Source: Candidatus Margulisiibacteriota bacterium
GTDB taxonomy: Bacteria > Margulisbacteria > WOR-1 > O2-12-FULL-45-9 > XYB2-FULL-48-7
Length of the DNA: 64,000 bases
Reading direction: 5' to 3'
Assembly (NCBI GenBank): GCA_041658645.1
Contig: JBAZZV010000006.1
Span: 19,486 to 83,485, forward strand
The first letter of the stretch is position 1. The number at the start of each line of letters is the position of its first letter. This document shows, piece by piece, positions 42,764 to 58,786 of the stretch. The notes under the pieces are model-generated. The model saw only the letters and a list, made by a program, of their open reading frames with translations. It had not been told where the DNA came from and did no database searches. The position numbers and the translations under genes were made by a program.

Positions 42764-44195
<1,432 letters not shown>

Positions 44196-45979: not shown

Positions 45980-46781
45980 TTAACTTCTCCCGCAACCCTT
46001 CGCCAACAAAATAAAGTGCTAGGACTGATATTAAAATTAAGACCCCCGGAATGATCGCCATCCACGGAGCATCGCGCATGTACGCCTGCGAATCCATCAA
46101 CATATTTCCCCAGGAAGACATCGGCGGTTGGACGCCGAGGCCAAGAAAAGAGAGGGCCGATTCGGTCAGGACAGCGCCGGCCATCCCCAGCGTTGCGGCG
46201 ACGATGATCGGGCTGGAGGCGTTCGGCAAGATATGGCGGAAGATGATCCGGAAGTCAGAACAGCCGATAGCGCGAGCGGCTTCCACATACTGCAACTCCC
46301 TGATCCGGAGGAATTCACCCCGCACCAGCCGCGCCACCCCCATCCAGGAAGTCAGCCCGATAACGATCATCACATTATAGATATTGGGAGTCAACATCGC
46401 CTGGATCGCCAGGATAAGAAAGATCGAGGGGAACGCCAGCATCACATCCACCCCGCGCATAATGACACTATCCAGCCAACTGCCGTAATAGCCGGAGAGT
46501 GCCCCAAGCAAAGTCCCGATCAACACGGAAATTATGACGGCAACCGCGCCAACGGTCAGCGAGATCCGCGCGCCGTAGAGCGCCCGGCTTAACAGATCAC
46601 GCCCCAGATCATCAGTCCCGAACAGATGCCGGAGTGACGGCCCCTGGATCTCCGATTCAGTGATCTCGGACGGATCAAACGGAGCCAGTGCCGGAGCAAA
46701 TATCGCGGCAGTTATCATGATTAAGATAATAATAATACCAACATTCGTCATTCGAAATTGGTTATTCGTCATTTTATTCAT
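45966..46781 (-). CDS. ABC transporter permease (DppC/OppC type); N-terminus encoded by a family-1 repeat
   Basis: Permease EAA-like region ALSFLGLGVQPP; N-terminal MNKMTNNQFRMTNV from repeat. Confidence 0.8.
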   Translation of the reverse strand: MNKMTNNQFRMTNVGIIIILIMITAAIFAPALAPFDPSEITESEIQGPSLRHLFGTDDLGRDLLSRALYGARISLTVGAVAVIISVLIGTLLGALSGYYGSWLDSVIMRGVDVMLAFPSIFLILAIQAMLTPNIYNVMIVIGLTSWMGVARLVRGEFLRIRELQYVEAARAIGCSDFRIIFRHILPNASSPIIVAATLGMAGAVLTESALSFLGLGVQPPMSSWGNMLMDSQAYMRDAPWMAIIPGVLILISVLALYFVGEGLREKLNVRG

Positions 46782-46783
46782 AA
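46744..46783. repeat. Family-1 repeat arm (cattcgtcattcgaaattggttattcgtcatt)
   Basis: Similarity to 648-765 and 26873-26905. Confidence 0.5.
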
Positions 46784-47679
46784 CGAATCCTCGGGTCGAC
46801 CAACGCGTAACATATATCCGCCAACAGATTTCCCAAAACGATCAGCACGGCGGAGAACATGACGATCCCCATAATGACCGGATAATTGCGCTGGAAGATG
46901 CACTGGACCCCCAACCGACCCATCCCCGGCCAGGCGAAGATCGTCTCTATAATGAAAGCTCCGCCAAAGAGGTCGGGGAGTGATAAACCAAATATAGTCA
47001 CGATCGGCAGAAGAGCGTTACGCAAAGCGTGTTTATAGATGACGATCCATTCCGGCAAACCTTTAGCCCGCGCCGTCCGGATAAAATCCTGGTTGAGGAC
47101 CTCGAGCATCGCCGACCGCTGGTAGCGGGTCAAGCCGGCCAGGCTCCCGATCGTCATCGTGATGAGCGGCAAGACGATATTGCCGACCGCCGGCAGCCAG
47201 TGGAGCTGGACCGAGAAGAGGAGCATCAGCATCAGGCCGAGCCAGAAGGTCGGTATCGCCATCCCGGTAAAAGAGAGGAAGGTGACCGTATTATCGAACC
47301 AGGAGTTTTTCCTGACCGCCGACATTACCCCGAGCGGGATGCAGATCAGGAAGGTCAGGATATATGAGGGGATCATCAGCATCAGGGTCAGCGGCAGCCG
47401 CTCGGCGATCTCGCTGATGACCGGCTGGCCGGTCGTATAGCTCCGGCCAAAGTCGAGGAGAACGGCATTCTTCAGCCAGAGAAAATATTGGATATAGACT
47501 GGCTGGTCCAGCCCCCAGTTGGCGCGCACACGCATTAGTTCTTCGGGTTTGACGTTGGGATCGATAAAAAGAGCGGTCGGGTCACCGGGAGCCAGGTGCA
47601 TGACGAAAAAGGAAATCAGGGAGATGCCGATCAGGAGCGGGATCAGCTGCAGCAGTCTTTTTACAATGTATGCGCGCAT
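46774..47679 (-). CDS. ABC transporter permease (DppB/OppB type)
   Basis: 301 aa, 6 TM, binding-protein-dependent transport inner-membrane component. Confidence 0.8.
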   Translation of the reverse strand: MRAYIVKRLLQLIPLLIGISLISFFVMHLAPGDPTALFIDPNVKPEELMRVRANWGLDQPVYIQYFLWLKNAVLLDFGRSYTTGQPVISEIAERLPLTLMLMIPSYILTFLICIPLGVMSAVRKNSWFDNTVTFLSFTGMAIPTFWLGLMLMLLFSVQLHWLPAVGNIVLPLITMTIGSLAGLTRYQRSAMLEVLNQDFIRTARAKGLPEWIVIYKHALRNALLPIVTIFGLSLPDLFGGAFIIETIFAWPGMGRLGVQCIFQRNYPVIMGIVMFSAVLIVLGNLLADICYALVDPRIRYE

Positions 47680-47732
47680 CTAGCGTTATTTTAAACTAAC
47701 GCCGACAAATGCGCAAATATCAGGGCGGCTTA

Positions 47733-48299
47733 CTATTTCAAATAATCGGGCAATTGGTCGGCCAGGATCAGCAGAAAGCTTGCTCCGCCGAAACGATAGA
47801 CATCTTTGGCTGGAACGGTATAAACAAAAAACCTTTCTGTGGTTTCTGCCCCTCTTGCCGCAGTCAACATGCCGTTCAATTTATCTTCAGCCATTTTTGC
47901 GCCCCGGGGAAAATCGAGCGCGGCCAGATCAGGGTTTGAAAACAACCTGGCCAGTTCGGGCTCGCTAAACCGGGCGGCCAGCGCTTCATTAACCGCTACC
48001 CTTTGCCCCGTTAAATGATCGATATTCTTGACGCCGGCATCCCCGCCGCTGATTACAATCTGCGAGCTGGCTACTCCGAGTTTTTTAGGATCGATCTCGA
48101 TCGTTTGCAAATAATGCGTTTGCAAATAATGATATTTTATCGCCTGCCGGTCCTCGACACCTTCGCGTTTGGCCTTTTGTGATAAAGAAAAGAAAAACCG
48201 CCGGCGAGCGATCTGAACTGCATTATTTGAAATTGGTTTACCATCCATGGTCAATACCTCCTGAAAAGATTGGGGCCAATTCTTTATCCGCCTGGCCAA
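47733..48299 (-). CDS. Hypothetical protein; contains 13-bp tandem duplication (tttgcaaataatg x2, HYLQTHYLQT)
   Basis: ORF only. Confidence 0.4.
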   Translation of the reverse strand: MARRIKNWPQSFQEVLTMDGKPISNNAVQIARRRFFFSLSQKAKREGVEDRQAIKYHYLQTHYLQTIEIDPKKLGVASSQIVISGGDAGVKNIDHLTGQRVAVNEALAARFSEPELARLFSNPDLAALDFPRGAKMAEDKLNGMLTAARGAETTERFFVYTVPAKDVYRFGGASFLLILADQLPDYLK

Positions 48300-48406
48300 G
48301 CCAAAATTTCATTGTTTTTTAAAAGGGTTAAAATCCTGGTTATTTCTGTTTGATAAAAATCTTTTCGCGGTGGCGCAGCAGTCAAAATACATTAATGAAA
48401 AAGTTT

Positions 48407-50503
48407 CTACAACCCTTTACTTTTTCTTAGCGCCGCCGCTGGGTCAGCTGGATTATTAACCGCAAAGCGCCAGGCATCAGACGGGGTAACTCCCTGATCT
48501 TGGTATTTAGCTGCCAGGTCTGCCGCCACTTTGAGTGCTTTCTTCAGCGCCGCTTCGGTATCTTTATACCCACCCGCAAAGTGCCAGGCATCGGACGGGG
48601 TAACTCCCTGATCTTGGTATTTATTCGCCAGGTCTGCCGCAACCTTTAGCGCTTTCTTTAGCGCGGCTTCGGCATCTTTATACTCAACCGCAAAGTACCA
48701 GGCATCGGACAGGGTAACTCCCTGATCTTGGAATTTATTCGCCAGGTCCGCCGCAACCTTTAGCGCTTTGGTTAGTGCTGTCTCTGGCTTGTCTGGATTA
48801 TAAACCGCAAAGTACCAGACATCAGACTTGGTAACTCCCTCAGATTCGTACTTTTTCGCTAGTTCAGTCGCTACCTTGAGCGCTTTCTTTAGCCCTCTTT
48901 CTGGATCGGTTGGATTTCTAACCGCAAAGCGCCAGGCATCGAACGGGGTAACTCCCTCAGATTCGTACTTTTTCGCTAGTTCAGTCGCTACCTTGAGTGC
49001 TTTCTTCAGCGCCGCTTCGGCATCTTTATACCCAACCGCAAAGTGCCAGGCATCGGACGGGGTAACTCCCTGATCTTGGTATTTATTCGCCAGGTCTGCC
49101 GCAACCTTTAGCGCTTTGGTTAATGCTATCTCTGGCTTGTCTGAATTTCCAACTGCAAAGCGCCAGACATCAGCCTGGGTAACTCCCTGATCTTGGTATT
49201 TATTCGCCAGGTCTGCCGCAACCTTTAGCGCCTTGGTTAGTGCTGTCTCTGGCTTGTCTGGATTATAAACCGCAAAGTACCTGGCATCGGATGGGGTAAC
49301 TCCCTGATCTTGGTATTTATTCGCCAGGTCTGCCGCAACCTTTAGCGCTTTGGTTAGTGCTGTCTCTGGCTTGTTTGGATTATAAACCGCAAAGTACCTG
49401 GCATCGGATGGGGTAACTCCCTGATCTTGGTATTTATTCGCTAGTTCAGTCGCTACCTTGAGCGCTTTCTTCAGTGCCGCTTCTGGATCGGCTGGATTAC
49501 TAACCGCAAAGCGCCAGGCATCAGACCGGGGAACCCCCTCAGCCTGATATTTATTCACCAAGTCAGTCGCTGCTTTGAGCGCTTTCTTCAGTGCCGCTTC
49601 TGGATCGGCTGGATTACTAACCGCAAAGCGCCAGGCATCAGACCGGGGAACCCCTTGAGCTTGATATTTATTGAAGAGATAATCAATATAACCAGCTGGC
49701 ATTAGTCTTTTTACCATTGTTGGAATTTGTTTAGGGGAAAATTTAGCAGTTAGATATTCTTCCACGGTTTTCATCAGCATAAGGGTTAGCCTTTCCGCGC
49801 CAACTTCCCTGGAACGGATTAAGAGCTGGTCGGCATCACTGGGTAAAAGCATCCCCCAGGCAACCAGGCGGCTTAATTTGGCCTCGTTACTCCTGACCAA
49901 TGCTTCAGCCGCCAAGGGAATAGTAGTTCCTGATTCGATATCAGGCAGAGAAAAACCGCTGAAATGCCAATGCCTCGTTATCTCCCCGGATAAATATTCA
50001 AAATAATTTATTTCTATTTGAGACAATGAACCGCATCTGCCTCGAGGAAGTTCCGTTGGCTGAAAAGAATAATCAGGAGTAGTAAAAGGATATTCTGTCG
50101 GCTGAAGCGGCCCCTCTTTTTGAATGATCGGTTGCGAGTATGCCGGCGCCACCTTAGTAATAGGAGAAGCGTCAACGATCTCCAATCCTTTCACTTGAGC
50201 AACTACATTTTGCTGGCCGTTGAATTCGCTTATGATCATCTCCCTGATCGGTTTGTGTGGCGAATTCGCGGCAATAAGAAACTCAAGGTTTCTTCCCCCA
50301 ACCTGGCCGATAGCCAAGACAACAACTGTCGGAGTTTTTTTCAAGCAGTCAATCGCCATTGCGGTTATTGTTCCATTGGTGTTCAAGCCGTTGAAATGAT
50401 GGCCTGGAAAAGTGAATTGACGGTAAGCCTGGAGCAAGCTCACGGTTTTCGCAGAAACCTTCCCGGCGCATGGGAATACACCTATTTTATTGATCGCAAC
50501 CAT
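48407..50503 (-). CDS. Repeat protein: ~330-aa N-terminal domain plus ~11 tandem 38-aa helical repeats
   Basis: Repeat unit ...GVTPSDAWRFAV.NPDKPEAALTKALKVAADLANKYQDQ... Confidence 0.55.
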   Translation of the reverse strand: MVAINKIGVFPCAGKVSAKTVSLLQAYRQFTFPGHHFNGLNTNGTITAMAIDCLKKTPTVVVLAIGQVGGRNLEFLIAANSPHKPIREMIISEFNGQQNVVAQVKGLEIVDASPITKVAPAYSQPIIQKEGPLQPTEYPFTTPDYSFQPTELPRGRCGSLSQIEINYFEYLSGEITRHWHFSGFSLPDIESGTTIPLAAEALVRSNEAKLSRLVAWGMLLPSDADQLLIRSREVGAERLTLMLMKTVEEYLTAKFSPKQIPTMVKRLMPAGYIDYLFNKYQAQGVPRSDAWRFAVSNPADPEAALKKALKAATDLVNKYQAEGVPRSDAWRFAVSNPADPEAALKKALKVATELANKYQDQGVTPSDARYFAVYNPNKPETALTKALKVAADLANKYQDQGVTPSDARYFAVYNPDKPETALTKALKVAADLANKYQDQGVTQADVWRFAVGNSDKPEIALTKALKVAADLANKYQDQGVTPSDAWHFAVGYKDAEAALKKALKVATELAKKYESEGVTPFDAWRFAVRNPTDPERGLKKALKVATELAKKYESEGVTKSDVWYFAVYNPDKPETALTKALKVAADLANKFQDQGVTLSDAWYFAVEYKDAEAALKKALKVAADLANKYQDQGVTPSDAWHFAGGYKDTEAALKKALKVAADLAAKYQDQGVTPSDAWRFAVNNPADPAAALRKSKGL
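48446..49680. repeat. Tandem array of ~11 near-identical 114-bp units (in-frame, coding)
   Basis: Period 114 nt, unit begins ccgcaaagtRccaggcatcRgac... Confidence 0.8.
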
Positions 50504-50654
50504 TACTAATATATATCGCCTAAAAAAGAGAGAAATTTCAAAATTTGTGGAAATAGAGCCGATGAAAAAATCGTTTTCTGAAGCCTGAAAATGACATTCT
50601 CGGTTCCTCGCCGTTTGGAAACCGCGACGTTTAGTCGCCGGTTTCCAAAATATA

Positions 50655-52193
50655 TCATTTTTTTATAAACACTTTTTCAAGATGGAGGAACATCCCGGCC
50701 GGACCGGGCTTGGACAACCCGCCGACCCGGGTGTTAACGCCGGAAACCGACTTCGGATACCAGAGAAAAATATACGGCTGGTCGTCAGCGATCAGTTTCC
50801 AGATCCGGGCATAGATCCGCTTCCGCCCACCCCGGTCGATCGTCGTCCTCCCCTCCTCCAAAAGCCGGTCAACCTCGGGGTTCTTATATTTGACGAAGTT
50901 AAACCCTTTGGGATACTGGCTCGAATGCCAAATCGAATAAGCGTCGGGATCAAGGCCGAGCGACCACCCCATGATCAGTGCCTCAAAATCTTTCGGGTCT
51001 TTCGGCGCGTTAACTATTTTGAGAATAGAGGACCATTCCATCACCCGAACCTTAACTTTGACCCCCACCTTCTTATACTGCTGCTGGAGGATGACGGCCG
51101 CCTTTTCCCGCTCTTTGTTCCCCTGGTTGACCAGGATGGTGAATTCGAGGTTCTCCGCTCCCGCCTCTTTCAATAATTGCCGCGCTTTATCTTGGTTGTA
51201 CGGATATTTAGCTACCTCGCCGGAGTAAGCCCAGGAGATCGGCGCGGAAGGGGCATAAGCTGGTGTCGCTAGACCCCGAAAGATCAGGCCGACGAGTTGT
51301 TTCCGGTCTGTAGCGTAAGCCAGCGCCTGCCCGACCCTCCGGTCGGTAAATTTAGGATTGGCCAGGTTCAACCCGAGATAGACATAGAGCAAAACATCGG
51401 ACTCGTAAACGCCTATCCCTTTGACGCTCTTCATTCTGGTGTAATCTTTTGGCGGGATCCCCGCCTCATCGATCTCCCCCGCCTCCAGGGCGACCAGGGC
51501 GGTGTTATCATCCGGGATAATCTTATAAACGATCTGTTTAAGCAAAGGTTTCCCCAGGTAATAATCGGGATTGCGGCGGACGGTAATGTGGTCGCCGGTC
51601 TGCCACTCCTGGAAGATAAAGGGTCCGGTCCCGACCGGCCGGCGGTTGAACTTGGCCGTGTTGATATCCTCACCTTGCAGCAGATGTTTAGGGATAACGC
51701 TCATCGCCGCGTGGGTCAGGAAAGGGGCGAACGGCTTAGGCAGAACAGCCTGCACGGTATACTTGTTAACCGCCCGGAAAACGATCGGCCGACCGTCAAT
51801 AATATAATCGCTCCGGCGGACCGAATTCACTTTGGGGTTGAGGATCGAGTTGAAAGTAAAGACCACGTCATCGGCCGTGAACGGGACGCCATCGTGCCAG
51901 AGAACATCGCGGCGTAATTTGAAAGTCCAGGTCCGGCCATCGCGGGAAACCTGCCAGCTGGCCGCCAGGTCGGGAACGGGTTCAAGATTCTCGTTGAAGC
52001 TGATCAGCCCGGAAAAAATAGCGCTTTCCACCGCGGAGGAGACATTGTCGGTCGAAAGAATCGGATTTAAAAGAGAAACTTCGCCACCTAAACTGAATTT
52101 AAGTCCCCCGTCGGGGTCAACCTGCCCGGCCAGGGCGGCCGTCACCAACAGACAACTACATATTAGACAGTTCTTGAAGTTGCGCCATTCCAT
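50655..52193 (-). CDS. ABC transporter substrate-binding protein, family 5 (DppA/OppA-like)
   Basis: 512 aa, signal peptide, SBP_bac_5 architecture. Confidence 0.8.
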   Translation of the reverse strand: MEWRNFKNCLICSCLLVTAALAGQVDPDGGLKFSLGGEVSLLNPILSTDNVSSAVESAIFSGLISFNENLEPVPDLAASWQVSRDGRTWTFKLRRDVLWHDGVPFTADDVVFTFNSILNPKVNSVRRSDYIIDGRPIVFRAVNKYTVQAVLPKPFAPFLTHAAMSVIPKHLLQGEDINTAKFNRRPVGTGPFIFQEWQTGDHITVRRNPDYYLGKPLLKQIVYKIIPDDNTALVALEAGEIDEAGIPPKDYTRMKSVKGIGVYESDVLLYVYLGLNLANPKFTDRRVGQALAYATDRKQLVGLIFRGLATPAYAPSAPISWAYSGEVAKYPYNQDKARQLLKEAGAENLEFTILVNQGNKEREKAAVILQQQYKKVGVKVKVRVMEWSSILKIVNAPKDPKDFEALIMGWSLGLDPDAYSIWHSSQYPKGFNFVKYKNPEVDRLLEEGRTTIDRGGRKRIYARIWKLIADDQPYIFLWYPKSVSGVNTRVGGLSKPGPAGMFLHLEKVFIKK

Positions 52194-52572
52194 TCCGTTT
52201 GTATCCTGTCAGCGTATATTTGCCGCTCGGATCATCGTAACTGTAAACGATCCGGCCGGCCGTGTCTGAATCGGAGTACTCCTTACCGGTGAACGGGTTT
52301 TTCGGAATACCGGCAACATATCCGCCGGCCATCAGATAGTCGCGGCAGAGCGAAGCCAGGGTAATGTTCTTGGCCATGGGATAAACATCATTCTCCATCT
52401 GGTAAGCTTCTACCGCCAGCTGGACGGTATGCATGACCCCCCGGACGGCCGCTTCCTTACCCCGGTCGCGCGCTCCCAACAAATTAGGGACCAGGAAAAC
52501 CGAGAGCAAACCGATTATCCCGATAACGACCAGGACCTCAATTAACGTAAAACCTTTTTTCATACTAACCAT
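52156..52572 (-). CDS. Type II secretion/type IV pilus pseudopilin (GspG/PulG-like prepilin)
   Basis: KKGFTLIEVLVVIGIIGLL prepilin N-terminal motif. Confidence 0.75.
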   Translation of the reverse strand: MVSMKKGFTLIEVLVVIGIIGLLSVFLVPNLLGARDRGKEAAVRGVMHTVQLAVEAYQMENDVYPMAKNITLASLCRDYLMAGGYVAGIPKNPFTGKEYSDSDTAGRIVYSYDDPSGKYTLTGYKRNGMAQLQELSNM

Positions 52573-52605
52573 CTCCTTATATTATAGGGTTTAGACAATA
52601 AAACT

Positions 52606-53625
52606 TCAATTCAAAGCTGAAATCATGTTCATCAGCGGGAGAAAAATCCCCATGACAACCAAGCCGACAAAGAGGCCGACCGAGAGGGTCATGACCGGCT
52701 CGATCAGAGCGGTCAATCTTTTAAGGCTCATCTCCCTCTCCCGCGCCTGGTAATGAGAAACGCTCAAGAACATTTCGGCCAGCCGGCCGGAATTTTCGCC
52801 GACCTTAAGCATGTCGGTCATCTCGGGCGGGAAGAATTGGCCGGCCGCCAGAACTGACGATAATTTTTCCCCGTTGATCACCTTATCGCGCGCCGCCAGA
52901 ATGGTCGAACGGAAAGCTCTCCCGCGGGAGGTCTCGGCCGCCACCTGCAACGCTTTATCGATCGGTGTCCCGGTGTTGAGCAAAGCGCCGATCGTCCCTA
53001 ACCCCTGGATGATCTCCTCTTGTTTCATAATACTTCCGACGAACGGCAAACGGCTGGCGACATCAGCTTTTCTGCGCCAAACAACCAAGCTCGCCAGCAA
53101 ACCGCCGATGATCAGGATCGGGAACAATTGCGCGAACAGATCAGCTGAACCAAGAATTATCCGGGTGATCAGAGGCAATTCACCGCCGATATCGGCAAAC
53201 ACGCCGCTCAACCCGGGAAGAACAAAGACGGCCAGGCCGATGAGACAAACGAGGCTTAAACAGAATATAAAAGCGGGATAAACGAGGGCGCTGATCAGTT
53301 TTTCTTCGATCTCCGCCCGCTCTTCGTAATATTTGGCGAGCTGGCCGAGGGCATCCTCAAGGCTCCCATTACTCTCTCCCACTTTTATTGAACTGGCGGC
53401 CAAAATTGGCAAATAGTTGACGAGCGCTTCACTTAACATCAGCCCGTTGTTTAACTTCTCGATTACCTCCGGCATCATGTTGTAAAACTTTTTTTTACCT
53501 GCTTTACTTGCAATTGATAAAGCTGAGAGTAAGGGAACGCCGGAGGAGAGGAGCATCTTAAGTTGCGAACAGAAGTAAGCCGTCTGACGCTTATTAAGCG
53601 TCCGCTTAGAAGACATCTTCATCAC
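52606..53625 (-). CDS. Type II secretion system F / PilC-family platform protein (short)
   Basis: GspF-like duplicated domain, 339 aa. Confidence 0.7.
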   Translation of the reverse strand: MMKMSSKRTLNKRQTAYFCSQLKMLLSSGVPLLSALSIASKAGKKKFYNMMPEVIEKLNNGLMLSEALVNYLPILAASSIKVGESNGSLEDALGQLAKYYEERAEIEEKLISALVYPAFIFCLSLVCLIGLAVFVLPGLSGVFADIGGELPLITRIILGSADLFAQLFPILIIGGLLASLVVWRRKADVASRLPFVGSIMKQEEIIQGLGTIGALLNTGTPIDKALQVAAETSRGRAFRSTILAARDKVINGEKLSSVLAAGQFFPPEMTDMLKVGENSGRLAEMFLSVSHYQAREREMSLKRLTALIEPVMTLSVGLFVGLVVMGIFLPLMNMISALN

Positions 53626-54005
53626 TTAGGCCTAAATCCCTTTAATATTCGCTTGTAAATTAGTTCTCTTCTAGAGAAATTAACCAATAAGCCTAGCTCA
53701 AGGTCAGCTTCTCTCAAATATTTTAATACTTGAATAACATTATTTCGTGAAAACCTTGGCGTGGCTTTTATTTCAAGGACAATCTTGTTGTCTACGAGAA
53801 AATCAGCATATTGATTACCAATCAATCCGTTTCTTAATATCTCTATTTTCTGTTGTTCGCGGTAATTAATAGCCTGTCTGGTAAATTCCTTGGCGATCGA
53901 TCGTTGATAATGCTTTTCAGCTAGGTTAGGCCCAAGTTCATTATGGACCTTAAAAAGAACTCCGATTATCTTATAGCTTAGTTCTGGATAAACAAGATTT
54001 GCCAC
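53622..54005 (-). CDS. GxxExxY-family protein
   Basis: GLIGNQYADFLVDNKIVLEIKA (GxxExxY-like), 127 aa. Confidence 0.6.
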   Translation of the reverse strand: MANLVYPELSYKIIGVLFKVHNELGPNLAEKHYQRSIAKEFTRQAINYREQQKIEILRNGLIGNQYADFLVDNKIVLEIKATPRFSRNNVIQVLKYLREADLELGLLVNFSRRELIYKRILKGFRPK

Positions 54006-54164
54006 TTGATCAACTCCGCTTGGCTTAGAGCAATCTTATTACCAGGTACAACACGAATGCACTAATGATGGCCCGAATGCTCTAATATTTGCTGTCTTAT
54101 TAGGATATTAGGACCCATATTCGTGTATTCGGGTTGTATATGTCTATCGACGAAATCTCGCCAC

Positions 54165-55643
54165 CTACTGTTGGATCCGGGGAAAAAGAACGTCACCCTT
54201 ATTGACCTTGGTTCCGTCGGGGTTAAGCTGAACGATGATCCTGGCAGCGGTCTCGGGCATGAAGGGGGTAATTAACCCGGCCACGGTCTTCAGGACCTCG
54301 TAAAGATTGGCCATGACGATGGCCAGCTGTTCCTTCTCCCCTTTCTTCGCCAACGACCAGGGGGCCTGTTTCTCAATATAAACGTTGGCCGCAGTGATCA
54401 AAGCCCAGACCACCCCCAGAGCGTCAGAGAAAGCCAATTCATCCATAGCCTGGGTGAAAGCCGCCGGCGTCTTCTTCAGCAGAGCAATTAAATCATCTTC
54501 TTGCCCCTGGACCCTAGGGACTATCCCATCAAAGTATTTCTCGATCATAGTCAGGGTCCGGCTTAAAAGGTTCCCCAGATCGTTGGCCAGATCGGTGTTG
54601 TAGCGATTAATGAAGAGCTTCTGGGAAAAATCGCCGTCAACCCCGAACGGCACTTCACGTAAGATGAAATAACGGACCACATCAACCCCATACTGTTTAG
54701 CTAAAGCTATCGGGTCAACGACATTCCCCTTCGACTTGCTCATCTTCTCCCCCTCGACCGTCCACCAGCCGTGCCCAAAAACCTTCTCCGGCAGGGGGAG
54801 CGAAAGAGCCATTAGGATCGCCGGCCAGATGACCGCATGGAAACGGACGATCTCCTTCCCCATCAGGTGGACCTGCGCGGGCCACCATTTGTTGAACTTG
54901 GCGTCATCCTGCAAGTAACCGATGGCGGAAATATAGTTGATCAGGGCGTCAAACCAGACATAAACGACATGCTGGGGATCGTCCGGAACACTGACCCCCC
55001 AGGGGAAAGCGGTCCGGGTCACCGAAAGGTCTTTCAACCCCTGCTTGATGAACTGGGTGATCTCGTTGCGGCGTGAGGCCGGCTGGATAAAACCGGGGTG
55101 GTCCTCAATGTATTTCAGTAAACGGTGCTGGTAGCCCGAGAGCTTAAAGAAATAGGAGTCTTCCTTGAGAAGATCGGTCGGGCGGCCGCAATCGGGGCAA
55201 AGCTTGCGCCCTTCCATATCCTCTTTCAATTCCCCTTCAGCCCAATAGGTCTCACAGGTCACGCAATACCACCCCTGGTATTGGCCCTTATAAATATCCC
55301 CTTGCTTCCGCAAACGGCTAAAGATCTTCTGGACGCACTCTTCATGCCGCGGTTCGGTGGTGCGGATAAAATCGTCGTATTTGACGTTCAACACTTGCCA
55401 GGCGGACTTGAACCGTTCGACGATCTCGTCGACGAAGGCCTGCGGCTGCTTCCCCTGCCCCTCCGCCGCTTTCCAGACCTTCTGCCCGTGCTCGTCTGTC
55501 CCGGTCAGGAAGTGGACCTCAAACCCCTTCGATCGCTTATAACGAGCCAAAACATCAGCCGCGATCGTCGTATACGCATGGCCGATGTGAGGGATATCGT
55601 TCACGTAGTATAGCGGCGTGGTCAGATAGAACTTTTGCGCCAT
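54165..55643 (-). CDS. metG: Methionyl-tRNA synthetase (short form without C-terminal tRNA-binding domain)
   Basis: Start MAQKFYLTTPLYYVNDIPHIGHAYT (HIGH), KMSKS; six-frame ORF extends to 55727 but MAQKF is the conserved N-terminus. Confidence 0.85.
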   Translation of the reverse strand: MAQKFYLTTPLYYVNDIPHIGHAYTTIAADVLARYKRSKGFEVHFLTGTDEHGQKVWKAAEGQGKQPQAFVDEIVERFKSAWQVLNVKYDDFIRTTEPRHEECVQKIFSRLRKQGDIYKGQYQGWYCVTCETYWAEGELKEDMEGRKLCPDCGRPTDLLKEDSYFFKLSGYQHRLLKYIEDHPGFIQPASRRNEITQFIKQGLKDLSVTRTAFPWGVSVPDDPQHVVYVWFDALINYISAIGYLQDDAKFNKWWPAQVHLMGKEIVRFHAVIWPAILMALSLPLPEKVFGHGWWTVEGEKMSKSKGNVVDPIALAKQYGVDVVRYFILREVPFGVDGDFSQKLFINRYNTDLANDLGNLLSRTLTMIEKYFDGIVPRVQGQEDDLIALLKKTPAAFTQAMDELAFSDALGVVWALITAANVYIEKQAPWSLAKKGEKEQLAIVMANLYEVLKTVAGLITPFMPETAARIIVQLNPDGTKVNKGDVLFPRIQQ

Positions 55644-55665
55644 ATGTGAATTATACAGATAATAA

Positions 55666-57519
55666 TTGAAATTTTCAAAAAAGGAGCCCGATAAGCAGTA
55701 TATGGCCATCGAAAAAGCCGCAACCATAATGGATAGAACACGTAATTTATTGGCGCGTCCGTTAAGTAAAGCGGTCTTAGCCCTCGGCCTTGCCTCTTCA
55801 GCCCTGATCCCCTCTCATCAAACAGTCAGGCAAGCCCCGACCGCTAGTTTTTTTGACCCCAGCATAAAATTGCCCGATGCGATCAAAAACATTAAACGGT
55901 TAACACAGGAAATTGCTGAAAGCTATCCCAACCAAAACCTGGGACACTTGAGGCCGATTTTTGACAATCTTTCGATTTATGCGGAAAAATATTCGGTTCC
56001 CTGGCTGAAACAGCTCTACGATAATAAAAGAGAAATCCTTCGGCTGCTGGATAACGCGAAAAGGATCGCCGATCATGAGCCGGCCGCGCGGCAAGAGCTG
56101 AATAAAGAAGAAACAGACGACCTGCGGGCAATTTTATCGGCCAGAACTCTATTTGACCTTTTGGACCATTTTGTCCCCCAGACAAGCAGAACGGTTACGG
56201 TTACCCCTCCGGGCAATTTACCTCCGTTCGAAATCCAGCTGACTCCCGACCGGAGCGCCAGGACCATGTATAAAATGATCACCTCATCTCCACGGTTGCA
56301 AGCCAACACTCATTCGTCCAGCGGCACCCATGAGGAATTAAACGCAGGCAGCGGAAAAATGGAGCAATGGGTTGCCGGCAAGATCTGCGACAGCTCGCCT
56401 GCCTCTTATGACAAAACTTACGCCCAATTTTATATCGATGCGCTCGGAATAAACAGGTCGCTGCCGTTGCCCGAACTGGATCGGCTGATCGCCGAACTGG
56501 AAGCAAAATTCAAGGGTCAGGTAGCCAATCCGGCCAGGATCTGGATCAGCGATTTGGAACCGGCAAAAGAAAGCAATACCTGGGCGCTCAACTCCAATTT
56601 CGCTTTTAGATATGTTGACTTAAAACTTCATGCCGACGCGTTCCGCCTGATAAAAACACATCAATTCGCCTTCAATGAGGCGGCCCGAAAATTACATGAC
56701 TCCCATCCAGACATTTCCTCTGAACTATTTAGAAGCTTTTTGATGGCCCATTCACTGATCACGCATACCTGGCTGCGCTGGGACGATGTCTGGCAAGACG
56801 CAGGAGCAGCTTCAGCCTTCGGCACGGCGGCACAAGCGTTAAACTTTGGGGGAACATATAGCGCTTATAAAAAACAAGGTTACGCTTTTGGTATCACATT
56901 TAAACAAGGGGACACGATGTATGATTGCCCGTGGGGATTGGCTTCTCTAATGAAACTCCCCGTCCCCTTCCAAAGCCTGGGACATAACACCGTCATGGCG
57001 GGCGATCTATTGATCGCCGGAGAACGCGACGGCGGCCAGCTCTGGCATAAATATTTTCCCGAGTTCGAAATGACCGAAGAGAACGCAATCAGGATCGCCC
57101 TCGATCCGGTCAACTCACTTTACGCCGTGGCTCTTGTCTGCGATGCAAAATTAGATGATTTAAACAAAACCGTTTTCAGCAACCCGAACGTCGGCCTGCC
57201 GAGCGACGTTTATCCGTATATAAAAAATCCTGAGGACGCCAGGCGCTATCTGATGATCGAGCTGATGGGCCATTTGCGGGCTTTCCCCGAAGTGGGGATA
57301 AACTTTCCGAACGCTTTCCCTTTCAATATAGACTCCTGGAATCTCGGGCTGGGCGCTTCTTATAATTTATTGATCAGCCGAATACTGGGCGAAAACAGCG
57401 CCCTGCCCTATTTAAAAGGGAGCTTTGTGGTAGATTCAGGCGAGAAGTTAGACGCTTTTCACCACAGAAAACCAGAAAAATTCCCGGCGATAATGTGGAC
57501 GTTGACGCGCAATGATTGA
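55666..57519 (+). CDS. Large hypothetical protein, possibly secreted
   Basis: 617-aa ORF; hydrophobic segment AVLALGLASSALIP near N-terminus; no known domain. Confidence 0.4.
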   Translation: MKFSKKEPDKQYMAIEKAATIMDRTRNLLARPLSKAVLALGLASSALIPSHQTVRQAPTASFFDPSIKLPDAIKNIKRLTQEIAESYPNQNLGHLRPIFDNLSIYAEKYSVPWLKQLYDNKREILRLLDNAKRIADHEPAARQELNKEETDDLRAILSARTLFDLLDHFVPQTSRTVTVTPPGNLPPFEIQLTPDRSARTMYKMITSSPRLQANTHSSSGTHEELNAGSGKMEQWVAGKICDSSPASYDKTYAQFYIDALGINRSLPLPELDRLIAELEAKFKGQVANPARIWISDLEPAKESNTWALNSNFAFRYVDLKLHADAFRLIKTHQFAFNEAARKLHDSHPDISSELFRSFLMAHSLITHTWLRWDDVWQDAGAASAFGTAAQALNFGGTYSAYKKQGYAFGITFKQGDTMYDCPWGLASLMKLPVPFQSLGHNTVMAGDLLIAGERDGGQLWHKYFPEFEMTEENAIRIALDPVNSLYAVALVCDAKLDDLNKTVFSNPNVGLPSDVYPYIKNPEDARRYLMIELMGHLRAFPEVGINFPNAFPFNIDSWNLGLGASYNLLISRILGENSALPYLKGSFVVDSGEKLDAFHHRKPEKFPAIMWTLTRND

Positions 57520-57550
57520 TCGCGGATTCGGGAAACAGTCAACAGCGAAA

Positions 57551-58786
57551 CTAATCTTTGATCGGGAACAAGATCCTTATCGCCGTGACGTTTGACAGCG
57601 CTGTATTCGCCCAGGCGGGAACATCTCCGGTCAGGTCATAGTCGTCAAATTCCTCCGCCGGCATCGGCTGCCAATTATCTTTCCCTTTCAATTTAACCTC
57701 GACCAGGAAACGGCCTAACAATTTATTTTCCCAGTCGTCAGCCAGCAGATCGTTCTCACCGTAGACCGGGCGGAGGAAATATTTAAATAATGGGGCTGTT
57801 CCTTCGAGCGACGCCCCGCCGACCTCCGCCGGGCCGACGACCAGCCACTGGGTCAGCTCCCGGACCGACTTCATCGTCTGCCCGTGGAGAGAGGGAACGA
57901 TCTGAAAGCCGCCGATCTTCCCCAGGCGCGAAGTACAAACATCGATCACCCCGGGATGGTTGGCCCGGAGCCGGCCGACCGAGGCGTACTTGGTCCCGTC
58001 AAAGCGCCCGACCCCAATGACCGGGCGAAGGACCTCGCCGATCACTTTTTCCCCGCCGGCAAAATAATTCACGGTCACTTTACCGCCGAACTTGTTCTCA
58101 AAAATGATCTCTTTGGGTTGATCGGCCGCCCGCTCGACCATAATATAGAGCTTGTCGTTCAGTTGAGGGACATAGCCTACCGGCAGCGGCACGATGGCAT
58201 AACCGGGACGCGACAACATAACCCGGTTCCCCACGAACGGCGAGTATTCCCCGCCAAAGATCGACTCCCCGGCCGGGATATCGGTATAGAGCGAGGAATC
58301 GGAGCTTAAGTAAGAGCGATATCGGGACTGGGTCTTGAGGAATTCCCTGGGGAGGAGGCTGAAGATGACACCAGAACCGGTCGCCGCGCCAAGCGCGGTC
58401 TTGATGTGGATAGCATTGACCGCGGTGGCCGCTATCCGCCCATCGCCAACCCAGCGTGAAGCGGCATACCCTTCGGGATTAGTTTTAATTGTCGGATAAA
58501 CCACTTTACCCAGTTGAACGTAACTTTTCCCGCCGTCGGCGCTGACCTCGACCGTCCCCCCCGCCTGGTTCCAGATCTTAATCCGGTACTGCTCCTTGAA
58601 AATAGGGGTATTCTCGTGGTCCAACGGAGAGAGCGCGAAAGCCGGAGCAGTAACATCCAACATCAAACATCCAACCTCAAAACAAATGGCAACGATCAAA
58701 CAACAAATACCAAAATATTTGGTTATTGGAAATTGATATTTGATATTTGTTTTGAAGTTGGAAGTTGGAAGTTTGAAGTTCTTCAA
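57551..58786 (-). CDS. Hypothetical protein (start uncertain; 5' region coincides with a family-2 repeat)
   Basis: 411-aa ORF; possible starts at TTG 58786, or ATG of MLDV... Confidence 0.4.
   Translation of the reverse strand: MKNFKLPTSNFKTNIKYQFPITKYFGICCLIVAICFEVGCLMLDVTAPAFALSPLDHENTPIFKEQYRIKIWNQAGGTVEVSADGGKSYVQLGKVVYPTIKTNPEGYAASRWVGDGRIAATAVNAIHIKTALGAATGSGVIFSLLPREFLKTQSRYRSYLSSDSSLYTDIPAGESIFGGEYSPFVGNRVMLSRPGYAIVPLPVGYVPQLNDKLYIMVERAADQPKEIIFENKFGGKVTVNYFAGGEKVIGEVLRPVIGVGRFDGTKYASVGRLRANHPGVIDVCTSRLGKIGGFQIVPSLHGQTMKSVRELTQWLVVGPAEVGGASLEGTAPLFKYFLRPVYGENDLLADDWENKLLGRFLVEVKLKGKDNWQPMPAEEFDDYDLTGDVPAWANTALSNVTAIRILFPIKD

Follow-up and report, generated by a model that had tools for sequence, protein, structure and literature searches.

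A tandem-repeat protein between dppA and dppB in a Candidatus Margulisiibacteriota contig: array length, predicted structure and sigma-fused relatives

Introduction

Margulisbacteria are an uncultured sister lineage of Cyanobacteria. We analyzed a stretch of 64,000 nucleotides from a Candidatus Margulisiibacteriota bacterium (assembly GCA_041658645.1, contig JBAZZV010000006.1; the whole stretch is called the window below), in which the genes for a DppA-like solute-binding protein and a DppB-like permease are separated by a slot that holds two further genes. The subject of this study is the larger of these two, which encodes a 698-amino-acid (aa) protein ending in a tandem array and for which we use the working name REP; the other, ORF171, is a second cargo gene of the same slot (Table 1). 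A preliminary description of the locus, made from the sequence alone, had placed the 698-aa reading frame on the minus strand, between the dppB and dppA-like genes and together with a second unknown open reading frame (ORF), and these placements stand. With REP and its relatives, the known class of alpha-solenoids gains a new repeat family. Our favored reading, to which we assign a probability of only about 0.4, is that REP is a cytoplasmic, lineage-restricted solenoid whose array varies in length by recombination, that it is carried as cargo in the dppA-dppB slot, and that the module formed by its second domain and the repeats acts in transcription.

Table 1. Features of the REP locus (window coordinates) and the sigma-fused relatives of REP
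Feature	Position	Strand	Basis
REP coding sequence, 698 aa	48407..50503	-	ORF list; start kept in homologue P0002; exact product on 3 contigs of 50-200 kb
11-unit tandem array (aa 278-698)	48410..49672	-	unit parsing, identity matrices, Tandem Repeats Finder, AlphaFold2
N1, predicted beta-rich N-terminal domain, aa 1-115	50159..50503	-	AlphaFold2, pLDDT mostly above 90
Pro-rich linker, probably disordered, about aa 116-137	50093..50158	-	pLDDT below 50 at residues 119-137
N2, 'PD[FY]S[FY]xP' motif and predicted helical cap, about aa 138-277	49673..50092	-	pLDDT 92-98, helices 162 to 283
582-bp segment (5 units) missing from contig L001	48750..49331, equally 48793-49374	-	breakpoint scan, zero mismatches on both sides
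Variable cargo slot, 2,975 bp here	47680..50654	.	gap comparison in related contigs, G+C
dppA-like solute-binding protein gene (upstream flank)	50655..52193	-	Pfam SBP_bac_5, E 8e-101
dppB-like permease gene, first permease (downstream flank)	46774..47679	-	Pfam BPD_transp_1, BPD_transp_1_N
ORF171, second cargo gene, 171 aa	47733..48248	-	AGGAGG 8 nt upstream of ATG
Hairpin directly after dppA stop codon, no U-tract	50617..50646	-	sequence; 13-bp stem
Sigma fusions (relatives)	P0004, 965 aa; P0005, 1081 aa; P0021, 936 aa; P0035, 1299 aa		Sigma70_r2, r3, r4 C-terminal to module

Results

The tandem array and its copy number

The preliminary description had spoken of about 11 near-identical units of 114 bp that had recently expanded, following an N-terminal domain of about 330 aa. 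Unit parsing leaves 277 aa for the non-repeat N-terminal part and confirms the count of 11, but 114 bp is the length of only three units (38 aa; units 6, 9 and 10), while seven of the 11 measure 117 bp (39 aa) and unit 11 is truncated (34 aa, 102 bp). Nor are the units near-identical: pairwise identity averages 79% for DNA (range 71-98%) and 69% for protein (range 50-97%), which argues against a recent expansion of the whole array, and close pairs at the DNA level are limited to units 3/4 (98%), 1/2 (92%) and 6/10 (92%). Nonsynonymous differences between units (pN about 0.18) are about half as frequent as synonymous ones (pS about 0.36; pN/pS about 0.5). For positions 48448-49672, Tandem Repeats Finder gives a period of 117 with 10.5 copies, 81% matches and a score of 1211, together with a second, higher-order period of 348 bp. 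Three subtypes can be told apart among the units, which are mosaic in composition; the 5' half of unit 6 resembles units 3, 4 and 10 (94-98%), whereas its 3' end resembles unit 2 (95%) and not units 3/4 (67-69%), and unit 8 pairs at its 5' end with unit 7 and at its 3' end with unit 3. Such mosaicism points to recombination or gene conversion inside the array.

Every unit lies within the coding sequence and has a length divisible by 3 bp, so that a change in copy number would alter the length of REP and not its reading frame or its on/off expression. The shift in frame or promoter spacing by which a phase-variable locus is recognized is therefore absent from these 117/114-bp units and from the in-frame 582-bp difference described below, and the earlier proposal of phase variation falls. 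Simple scans for a promoter or terminator belonging to REP itself gave nothing above shuffle expectation.

All contigs carrying REP are short-read MEGAHIT (k141) assemblies, and the possibility that the array is an assembly artefact had been raised at the outset. The longest exact repeat within it is 82 bp, shorter than the k of 141, which makes the path through 11 units unique at the final k; the three contigs with the exact 698-aa product have 11 units each, and L007, one of the three, matches the window at 100% identity for 8,097 bp. The 11-unit array is not an obvious assembly artefact. Contig L001, from another assembly and 9,246 bp long, is 100% identical to window positions 48137-57964 apart from a single gap of 582 bp, which is an in-frame, clean loss of exactly units 4-8 that leaves six units. 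The breakpoint is ambiguous inside a 43-nt identity, and all apparent BLAST mismatches between L001 and the window fall in mis-extended repeat alignment. Counted in whole units and among contigs only, the copy numbers are thus 11 (three contigs) and 6 (one contig) in DNA that is otherwise 100% identical, and the difference is either a real contraction/expansion allele or an assembler shortcut at low k (collapse). The claim that the array is prone to contraction and expansion is supported by the L001 sequence, a putative allele without units 4-8, and by the mosaic units.

Protein architecture

Structure prediction of the unit and the N-terminal domain, which the preliminary description had suggested as a check, gave two-helix units, a beta-rich N1 and a helical N2 cap in AlphaFold2. 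A first model, built on a two-sequence alignment, was confident in the repeats (predicted local distance difference test, pLDDT, 85-94) and not in the N-terminus; a second, covering aa 1-355 and built on 19 family sequences, reached a pLDDT of 90.8 and a predicted template modeling score (pTM) of 0.62, and over both models the pLDDT of the repeats is 85-98. Strands of N1 are modeled at residues 46-50, 60-68, 71-79, 88-94, 97-103 and 105-114. The linker that follows varies in both length and sequence across the family. N2 carries the family signature SLVRSN-ARLxRLVAWGML, its modeled cap runs unbroken into the repeats, and it is kept in the relatives P0002 and P0004-P0011, sigma fusions included. 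Each unit is modeled as two helices, the first short (SDAWRFAV) and the second long (PE.ALKKALKVAADLANKYQDQ; PExALKKALKVAADLANKYQDQ), of about 10 and about 18-20 residues, with the consensus GV[TS]xxDAWxFAxxNPxxPExAL. Unit positions K2, G7, V8, D12, F16, A17, L28, K30, A35 and L38 are invariant in REP, and the most variable columns are 10, 15, 19, 22, 26 and 29, whose spacing suggests that they share one face of the unit.

Hydropathy, the models and conservation revealed no signal peptide, transmembrane segment, conserved lipobox or anchor in REP. The maximum Kyte-Doolittle mean over 19 residues is 1.44, with no hydrophobic segment, the N-terminus lies in a confidently folded domain from residue 5 onward in the model, and Cys12 is not conserved in the family. 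REP is thus predicted to be a cytoplasmic alpha-solenoid protein. The repeat region is mildly basic, with an isoelectric point of 9.0-9.7 in all nine proteins tested.

A family with sigma-factor fusions

Word-index searches with the full protein, with N1 plus N2 and with a 19-sequence profile returned one to three matches each and three relatives overall, and the family was exposed only by an exhaustive HMMER search, which recovered 72 relatives from 1.84 billion representatives at a cutoff of E<=1e-3, 11 with E-values below 1e-30. N2 and the repeats form the common core, while N1 is found in 13 family members and the module of N2 plus repeats is elsewhere paired with many other N-termini. Unit counts range from 2 to 17, and some members have 60-residue units with an insertion. 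One member (P0066) is, by its NCBI annotation, from a Candidatus Margulisbacteria metagenome-assembled genome (MAG). Two scans of GTDB representative genomes, with N1 patterns and with N2 patterns, found no relatives, searches of IMG/VR and of phage and plasmid records likewise yielded none, and the 64-kb window holds no second copy of the family. The literature search returned no work on the REP family, nor any on Margulisbacteria sigma factors extended by repeats.

In four relatives (Table 1), N2 and 550-900 residues of repeats are followed by Sigma70_r2, r3 and r4, and sigma is the only recurrent fusion partner in the family. The best NCBIfam matches of these four are RpoD/SigA-type models, below the curated cutoffs. 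They come from different samples and assemblies, two NCBI MAGs among them, and REP is 41-45% identical to them over N2 plus repeats; P0004 aligns to query positions 137-415 (HMMER, E 1e-150). REP itself has no Sigma70 Pfam match, and regions 2 and 4 are not present in it. A further relative of 2,211 aa (P0040) has GNAT and HPr domains and a weak kinase-like match, with the module at its C-terminus. Homologues of REP in other genomes lie in unrelated contexts and not near ABC transporters.

Two loci of the family gave observations of their own. The gene call for the sigma fusion P0021 (GCA_016223205.1; locus L014, 7768-8000) seems truncated, in that extending it to an in-frame ATG about 78 codons upstream gains a segment like the N-terminus of P0013; a 313-aa gene upstream of this sigma fusion was considered as an N1 homologue and ruled out by translation. 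At locus L002 (6490-7794, minus strand), a 434-aa protein in divergent orientation adjoins the homologue P0002 and consists of near-identical 37-aa TPR-like tandem repeats (NYPNS..AQYRIAxIYDEKLQDYPNAIAEYRK) unrelated to REP.

Comparison with known families

Pfam matches to REP were listed at E<=0.1. Only DUF6894 (PF21834) exceeded its whole-protein cutoff (34.5 bits against 24.1), yet no stretch was significant alone, the score being a sum over repeats, and only one of 73 family members matches the model, which is also the precomputed label of the family member P0001. The only HTH-type Pfam matches in the family (TFIIF_beta, HTH_3 and MCM_WH) are likewise sums of sub-threshold repeats, and the idea that 'GV[TS]xxDAWRF' forms the turn and recognition helix of a helix-turn-helix is for this reason not supported. 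NCBIfam and PADLOC held nothing meaningful for REP, and PHROGs only summed sub-threshold repeat matches; with neither a PADLOC match nor relatives on viral contigs, REP was not placed among anti-phage or phage proteins.

By sequence, the Protein Data Bank (PDB) matches of REP are designed helical repeats. A search with a two-unit profile, in line with another of the checks first suggested, did return designer PPR proteins, at 6-8 bits per unit and with per-unit E-values of 17-130; the low designer-PPR E-values arise because identical designer units are summed. Homology to PPR was rejected, since hhalign of a two-unit profile against the PPR consensus gave a probability of 7.6% over 24 columns. 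Both are helical-hairpin repeats of similar size, with a locally similar motif ('ALkxAxxLaxkYkdkGVsPsD' in REP, 'LEEALELFEEMKEKGIKPD' in PPR), but the REP unit has 38-39 residues and the PPR unit 35, and there is no Pfam PPR match in REP or the 73 members. TPR and Sel1-like proteins, which are frequent in bacteria as scaffolds for interaction, share with REP the two-helix repeat, the solenoid and the variable copy number; they differ in consensus and helix-length pattern, and REP has no TPR or Sel1 Pfam match.

Foldseek found no PDB match to the REP models at E<=0.001. For a four-repeat model, the top eight PDB matches were all MTERF1, seven of the eight as DNA complexes, with E-values of 0.035-0.35 and probabilities up to 0.90, and for the second model MTERF1, MTERF3 and MTERF4 were among the top matches. 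The marginal likeness to the mTERF family (PF02536), which is transcription-associated, lies in short helical units and a curved or superhelical basic solenoid. The differences are that mTERF units have about 30 residues and three helices, whereas those of REP have 38-39 residues and two helices (DSSP), that no Pfam mTERF match occurs in the REP family, and that mTERF proteins are organellar or eukaryotic. In the sigma fusions, the module sits N-terminal to regions 2-4, the usual place of regulatory extensions, as do the known N-terminal extensions of sigma-70 factors (region 1.1, the non-essential region and lineage-specific extensions), but region 1.1 is short and acidic while the module is repetitive, basic and 550-900 residues long.

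N1 had no Pfam or PDB sequence match. The candidates offered for its fold by structure were the designed double-psi beta-barrel 7dww, a pair of RlpA-like viral proteins (one carries a double-psi beta-barrel annotation) and short stretches of Arr (6cz7) and NuoG (7nz1); all were rejected, at E-values of 3-4, as not significant, as was a relationship to EssD (E 0.66).

The dppA-dppB slot

The surroundings of the slot were surveyed by a metagenome scan with DppA followed by local tblastn, which yielded about 18 related contigs with DppA 72-79% identical (loci L017-L033, L059 and L068). These share the gene order T2SSF, pseudopilin, dppA, gap, dppB, dppC. In five of them dppA abuts dppB (0-24 bp), which upholds the earlier reading of REP as an insertion in the dpp cluster; in 11 the slot is filled with 0.66-3.8 kb of unrelated genes, among them multi-wHTH (winged helix-turn-helix) proteins, a TPR protein with an AAA ATPase, two ORF171 paralogues and, by eye from motifs, apparent Lgt/LspA-like membrane proteins and an apparent ROK-type kinase. 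None of the related contigs covering the junction has a REP homologue, no relationship of REP to the other slot cargos was found, and no direct repeats flank the slot in the window. The G+C content of the slot (44-50%) is below that of the flanks (52-58%). Judged from gene order, this lineage has a hot spot for cargo at the dppA-dppB junction. The closed or differing slots of the relatives, taken with the location of REP homologues elsewhere, indicate that REP is one cargo of a variable slot and not a Dpp component, and a functional tie to dpp is not upheld.

Proteins identical to the neighbors of REP are recorded at NCBI for Candidatus Margulisiibacteriota bacterium MAGs (MFA4844273.1, MFA4844275.1 and MFA4844276.1), and the protein identical to the DppA-like product is named 'peptide-binding protein'. 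ORF171 is identical to MFA4844275.1 ('hypothetical protein WC632_04905', 171 aa). The preliminary description had set this second unknown at 47733-48299; the ORF itself is retained, but its start is, from the identical protein and the ribosome-binding-site-like motif in Table 1, most likely the ATG at 48248. ORF171 has no Pfam, NCBIfam or PADLOC match. Its two paralogous homologues stand directly upstream of dppB in L028, with the common C-terminal motif ...RFGGA..L.L...LPDYLK.

Three further observations concern the slot and its flanks. ORF171 contains an exact 15-bp tandem duplication (CGTTTGCAAATAATG x2; 48102-48131) that encodes HYLQT twice, and the six-unit contig L001 ends at 48137, beside this duplication, which hints at population heterogeneity there too. 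The strong hairpin after the dppA stop codon is placed like the stabilizing hairpins that follow binding-protein genes in other ABC operons, and the RNA fold of the dppA-REP intergenic region has an energy of -40 kcal/mol (z-score -2.97). In the closest related contig (L031, DppA 97% identical), T2SSF, pseudopilin and dppA are present, there is no dppB within 7.5 kb downstream, and dppA is followed, by eye, by an apparent hydrolase, threonine synthase and aspS, which suggests that the dpp cluster is rearranged or split there.

Discussion

The sigma fusions of four relatives, the basic character of the module and the marginal mTERF neighbors suggest, when taken together, that the module most likely acts in transcription. 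According to the favored reading, the array would change by in-frame unequal recombination and by gene conversion between units, giving rise to alleles of differing length. The module of N2 plus repeats would offer an extended surface that binds either nucleic acid or a partner on RNA polymerase or the nucleoid, with the number of repeats setting the length of this surface and columns 10, 15, 19, 22, 26 and 29 setting its specificity. REP would then be a free-standing version, in which N1 replaces the sigma domain as an output or partner domain.

Several points weigh against this reading. The link to sigma factors is one of domain fusion in relatives only; a profile of the four fused sigma domains found no sigma-like ORF in the 64-kb window (E<=10), and family members have nothing in common in their gene neighborhoods. 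A net charge of +7 over 421 residues is low for a protein that binds nucleic acid, the similarity to PPR is, at the level of sequence, a local resemblance of 24 residues, and the mTERF matches are not significant (E >= 0.035, TM-score 0.2-0.26, root-mean-square deviation about 10-12 A). The ligands of alpha-solenoids are very often proteins and not nucleic acids. With regard to length variation, the six-unit allele may be an assembler collapse.

The main rival, which we consider somewhat unlikely, is that REP is a generic protein-protein scaffold of the TPR/Sel1-like kind with no specific role in transcription, its repeats binding some protein; the sigma fusions would then simply recruit this ligand, or would be one use of the module among several that are unrelated. 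It accords with the protein-binding habit of most bacterial alpha-solenoids, with the presence of the module at the C-terminus of P0040 and behind many other N-termini, and with the lack of a significant structural match to any nucleic-acid binder. Less easily explained by a scaffold are the four separate sigma fusions, which have divergent repeat regions and are the sole recurrent fusion, the consistently basic repeat rods, and the standing of mTERF proteins among the best PDB matches of both models, including the top eight for the four-repeat model.

It is also conceivable, though improbable, that REP regulates or competes with a repeat-bearing sigma factor, as a decoy or an anti-sigma at the same docking site or partner. 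REP and the sigma fusions do share N2 and repeats at 41-45% identity, and the accession of P0004 (ERZ27247851) is numerically near that of the window's contig (ERZ27247322), so that both probably belong to the same study; but none of the window's ORFs is a sigma fusion carrying the module, and no REP gene stands beside a sigma gene in any locus examined.

A more specific form of the transcriptional role, and a decidedly improbable one, is that the module is a nucleic-acid-reading solenoid whose units would each contact a few nucleotides through columns 15, 19, 22, 26 and 29, in the manner of mTERF, PPR or TALE proteins. It would serve as a promoter- or upstream-element-reading arm in an RpoD-like sigma factor and would be free-standing in REP, with the length of its target retuned by the gain and loss of units.

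The odds are slim that assembly created the array or altered its copy number. Tandem arrays are commonly mis-assembled, and among these short-read MEGAHIT (k141) contigs one assembly has six units where others have 11; against this, the longest exact repeat of 82 bp falls short of the k of 141, the 698-aa product recurs on three contigs, homologues from other samples and species carry like arrays of 2-17 units, and the reading frame is intact throughout.

The prospects are very poor for an adhesin-type surface protein, phase- or valency-variable and with recently expanded repeats. Such a protein would fit a tandem array whose copy number differs from one assembly to another and the 98% identity of units 3/4, but not the lack of a signal peptide, transmembrane segment, lipobox or anchor, nor units divisible by 3 bp that allow no frame switching, nor a mean unit identity of 79% with a pN/pS of about 0.5, nor the fusion of the module to cytoplasmic sigma factors. 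Variable binding valency, which the preliminary description had also proposed, is accordingly set aside in its surface or adhesin sense, given the missing export signals and the sigma-fused module, and is kept as a reasonable idea in the sense of a variable binding length for an intracellular ligand. Barely credible, lastly, is a co-transcribed accessory component of the Dpp/Opp transporter, for which the shared strand, the position between dppA and dppB and the fact that simple scans gave no convincing promoter or terminator for REP itself could be cited, but which is at odds with dppA-dppB adjacency in five relatives and unrelated cargo in 11 others, with homologues that are not near ABC transporters and with the lower G+C of the slot.

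If the favored role in transcription is true, Margulisbacteria would hold a candidate transcription-associated system without an annotated counterpart, in which a repeat arm of 550-900 residues makes an unusual sigma extension, and the family would stand in bacteria as a lineage-specific counterpart to the nucleic-acid-binding solenoids of organelles. A module that reads nucleic acid would mean that a bacterial sigma factor selects promoters in a new way, whereas a module that is merely a protein-binding scaffold would make REP an ordinary orphan repeat protein. The dppA-dppB hot spot could be used as a marker of strain-level variation in the lineage.

Additional observations in the window

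Between the T2SSF gene and metG lies a small gene of the PDDEXK_3 family (53622-54005, minus strand; Pfam assignment from the identical locus L001), in a stretch of markedly low G+C (38-43%) that looks like another small insertion. A tRNA-Gly(GCC) at 42764-42836 overlaps the 5' end of an enolase ORF with a TTG start (42795-44195), and from this overlap the true start of the enolase must lie further downstream.

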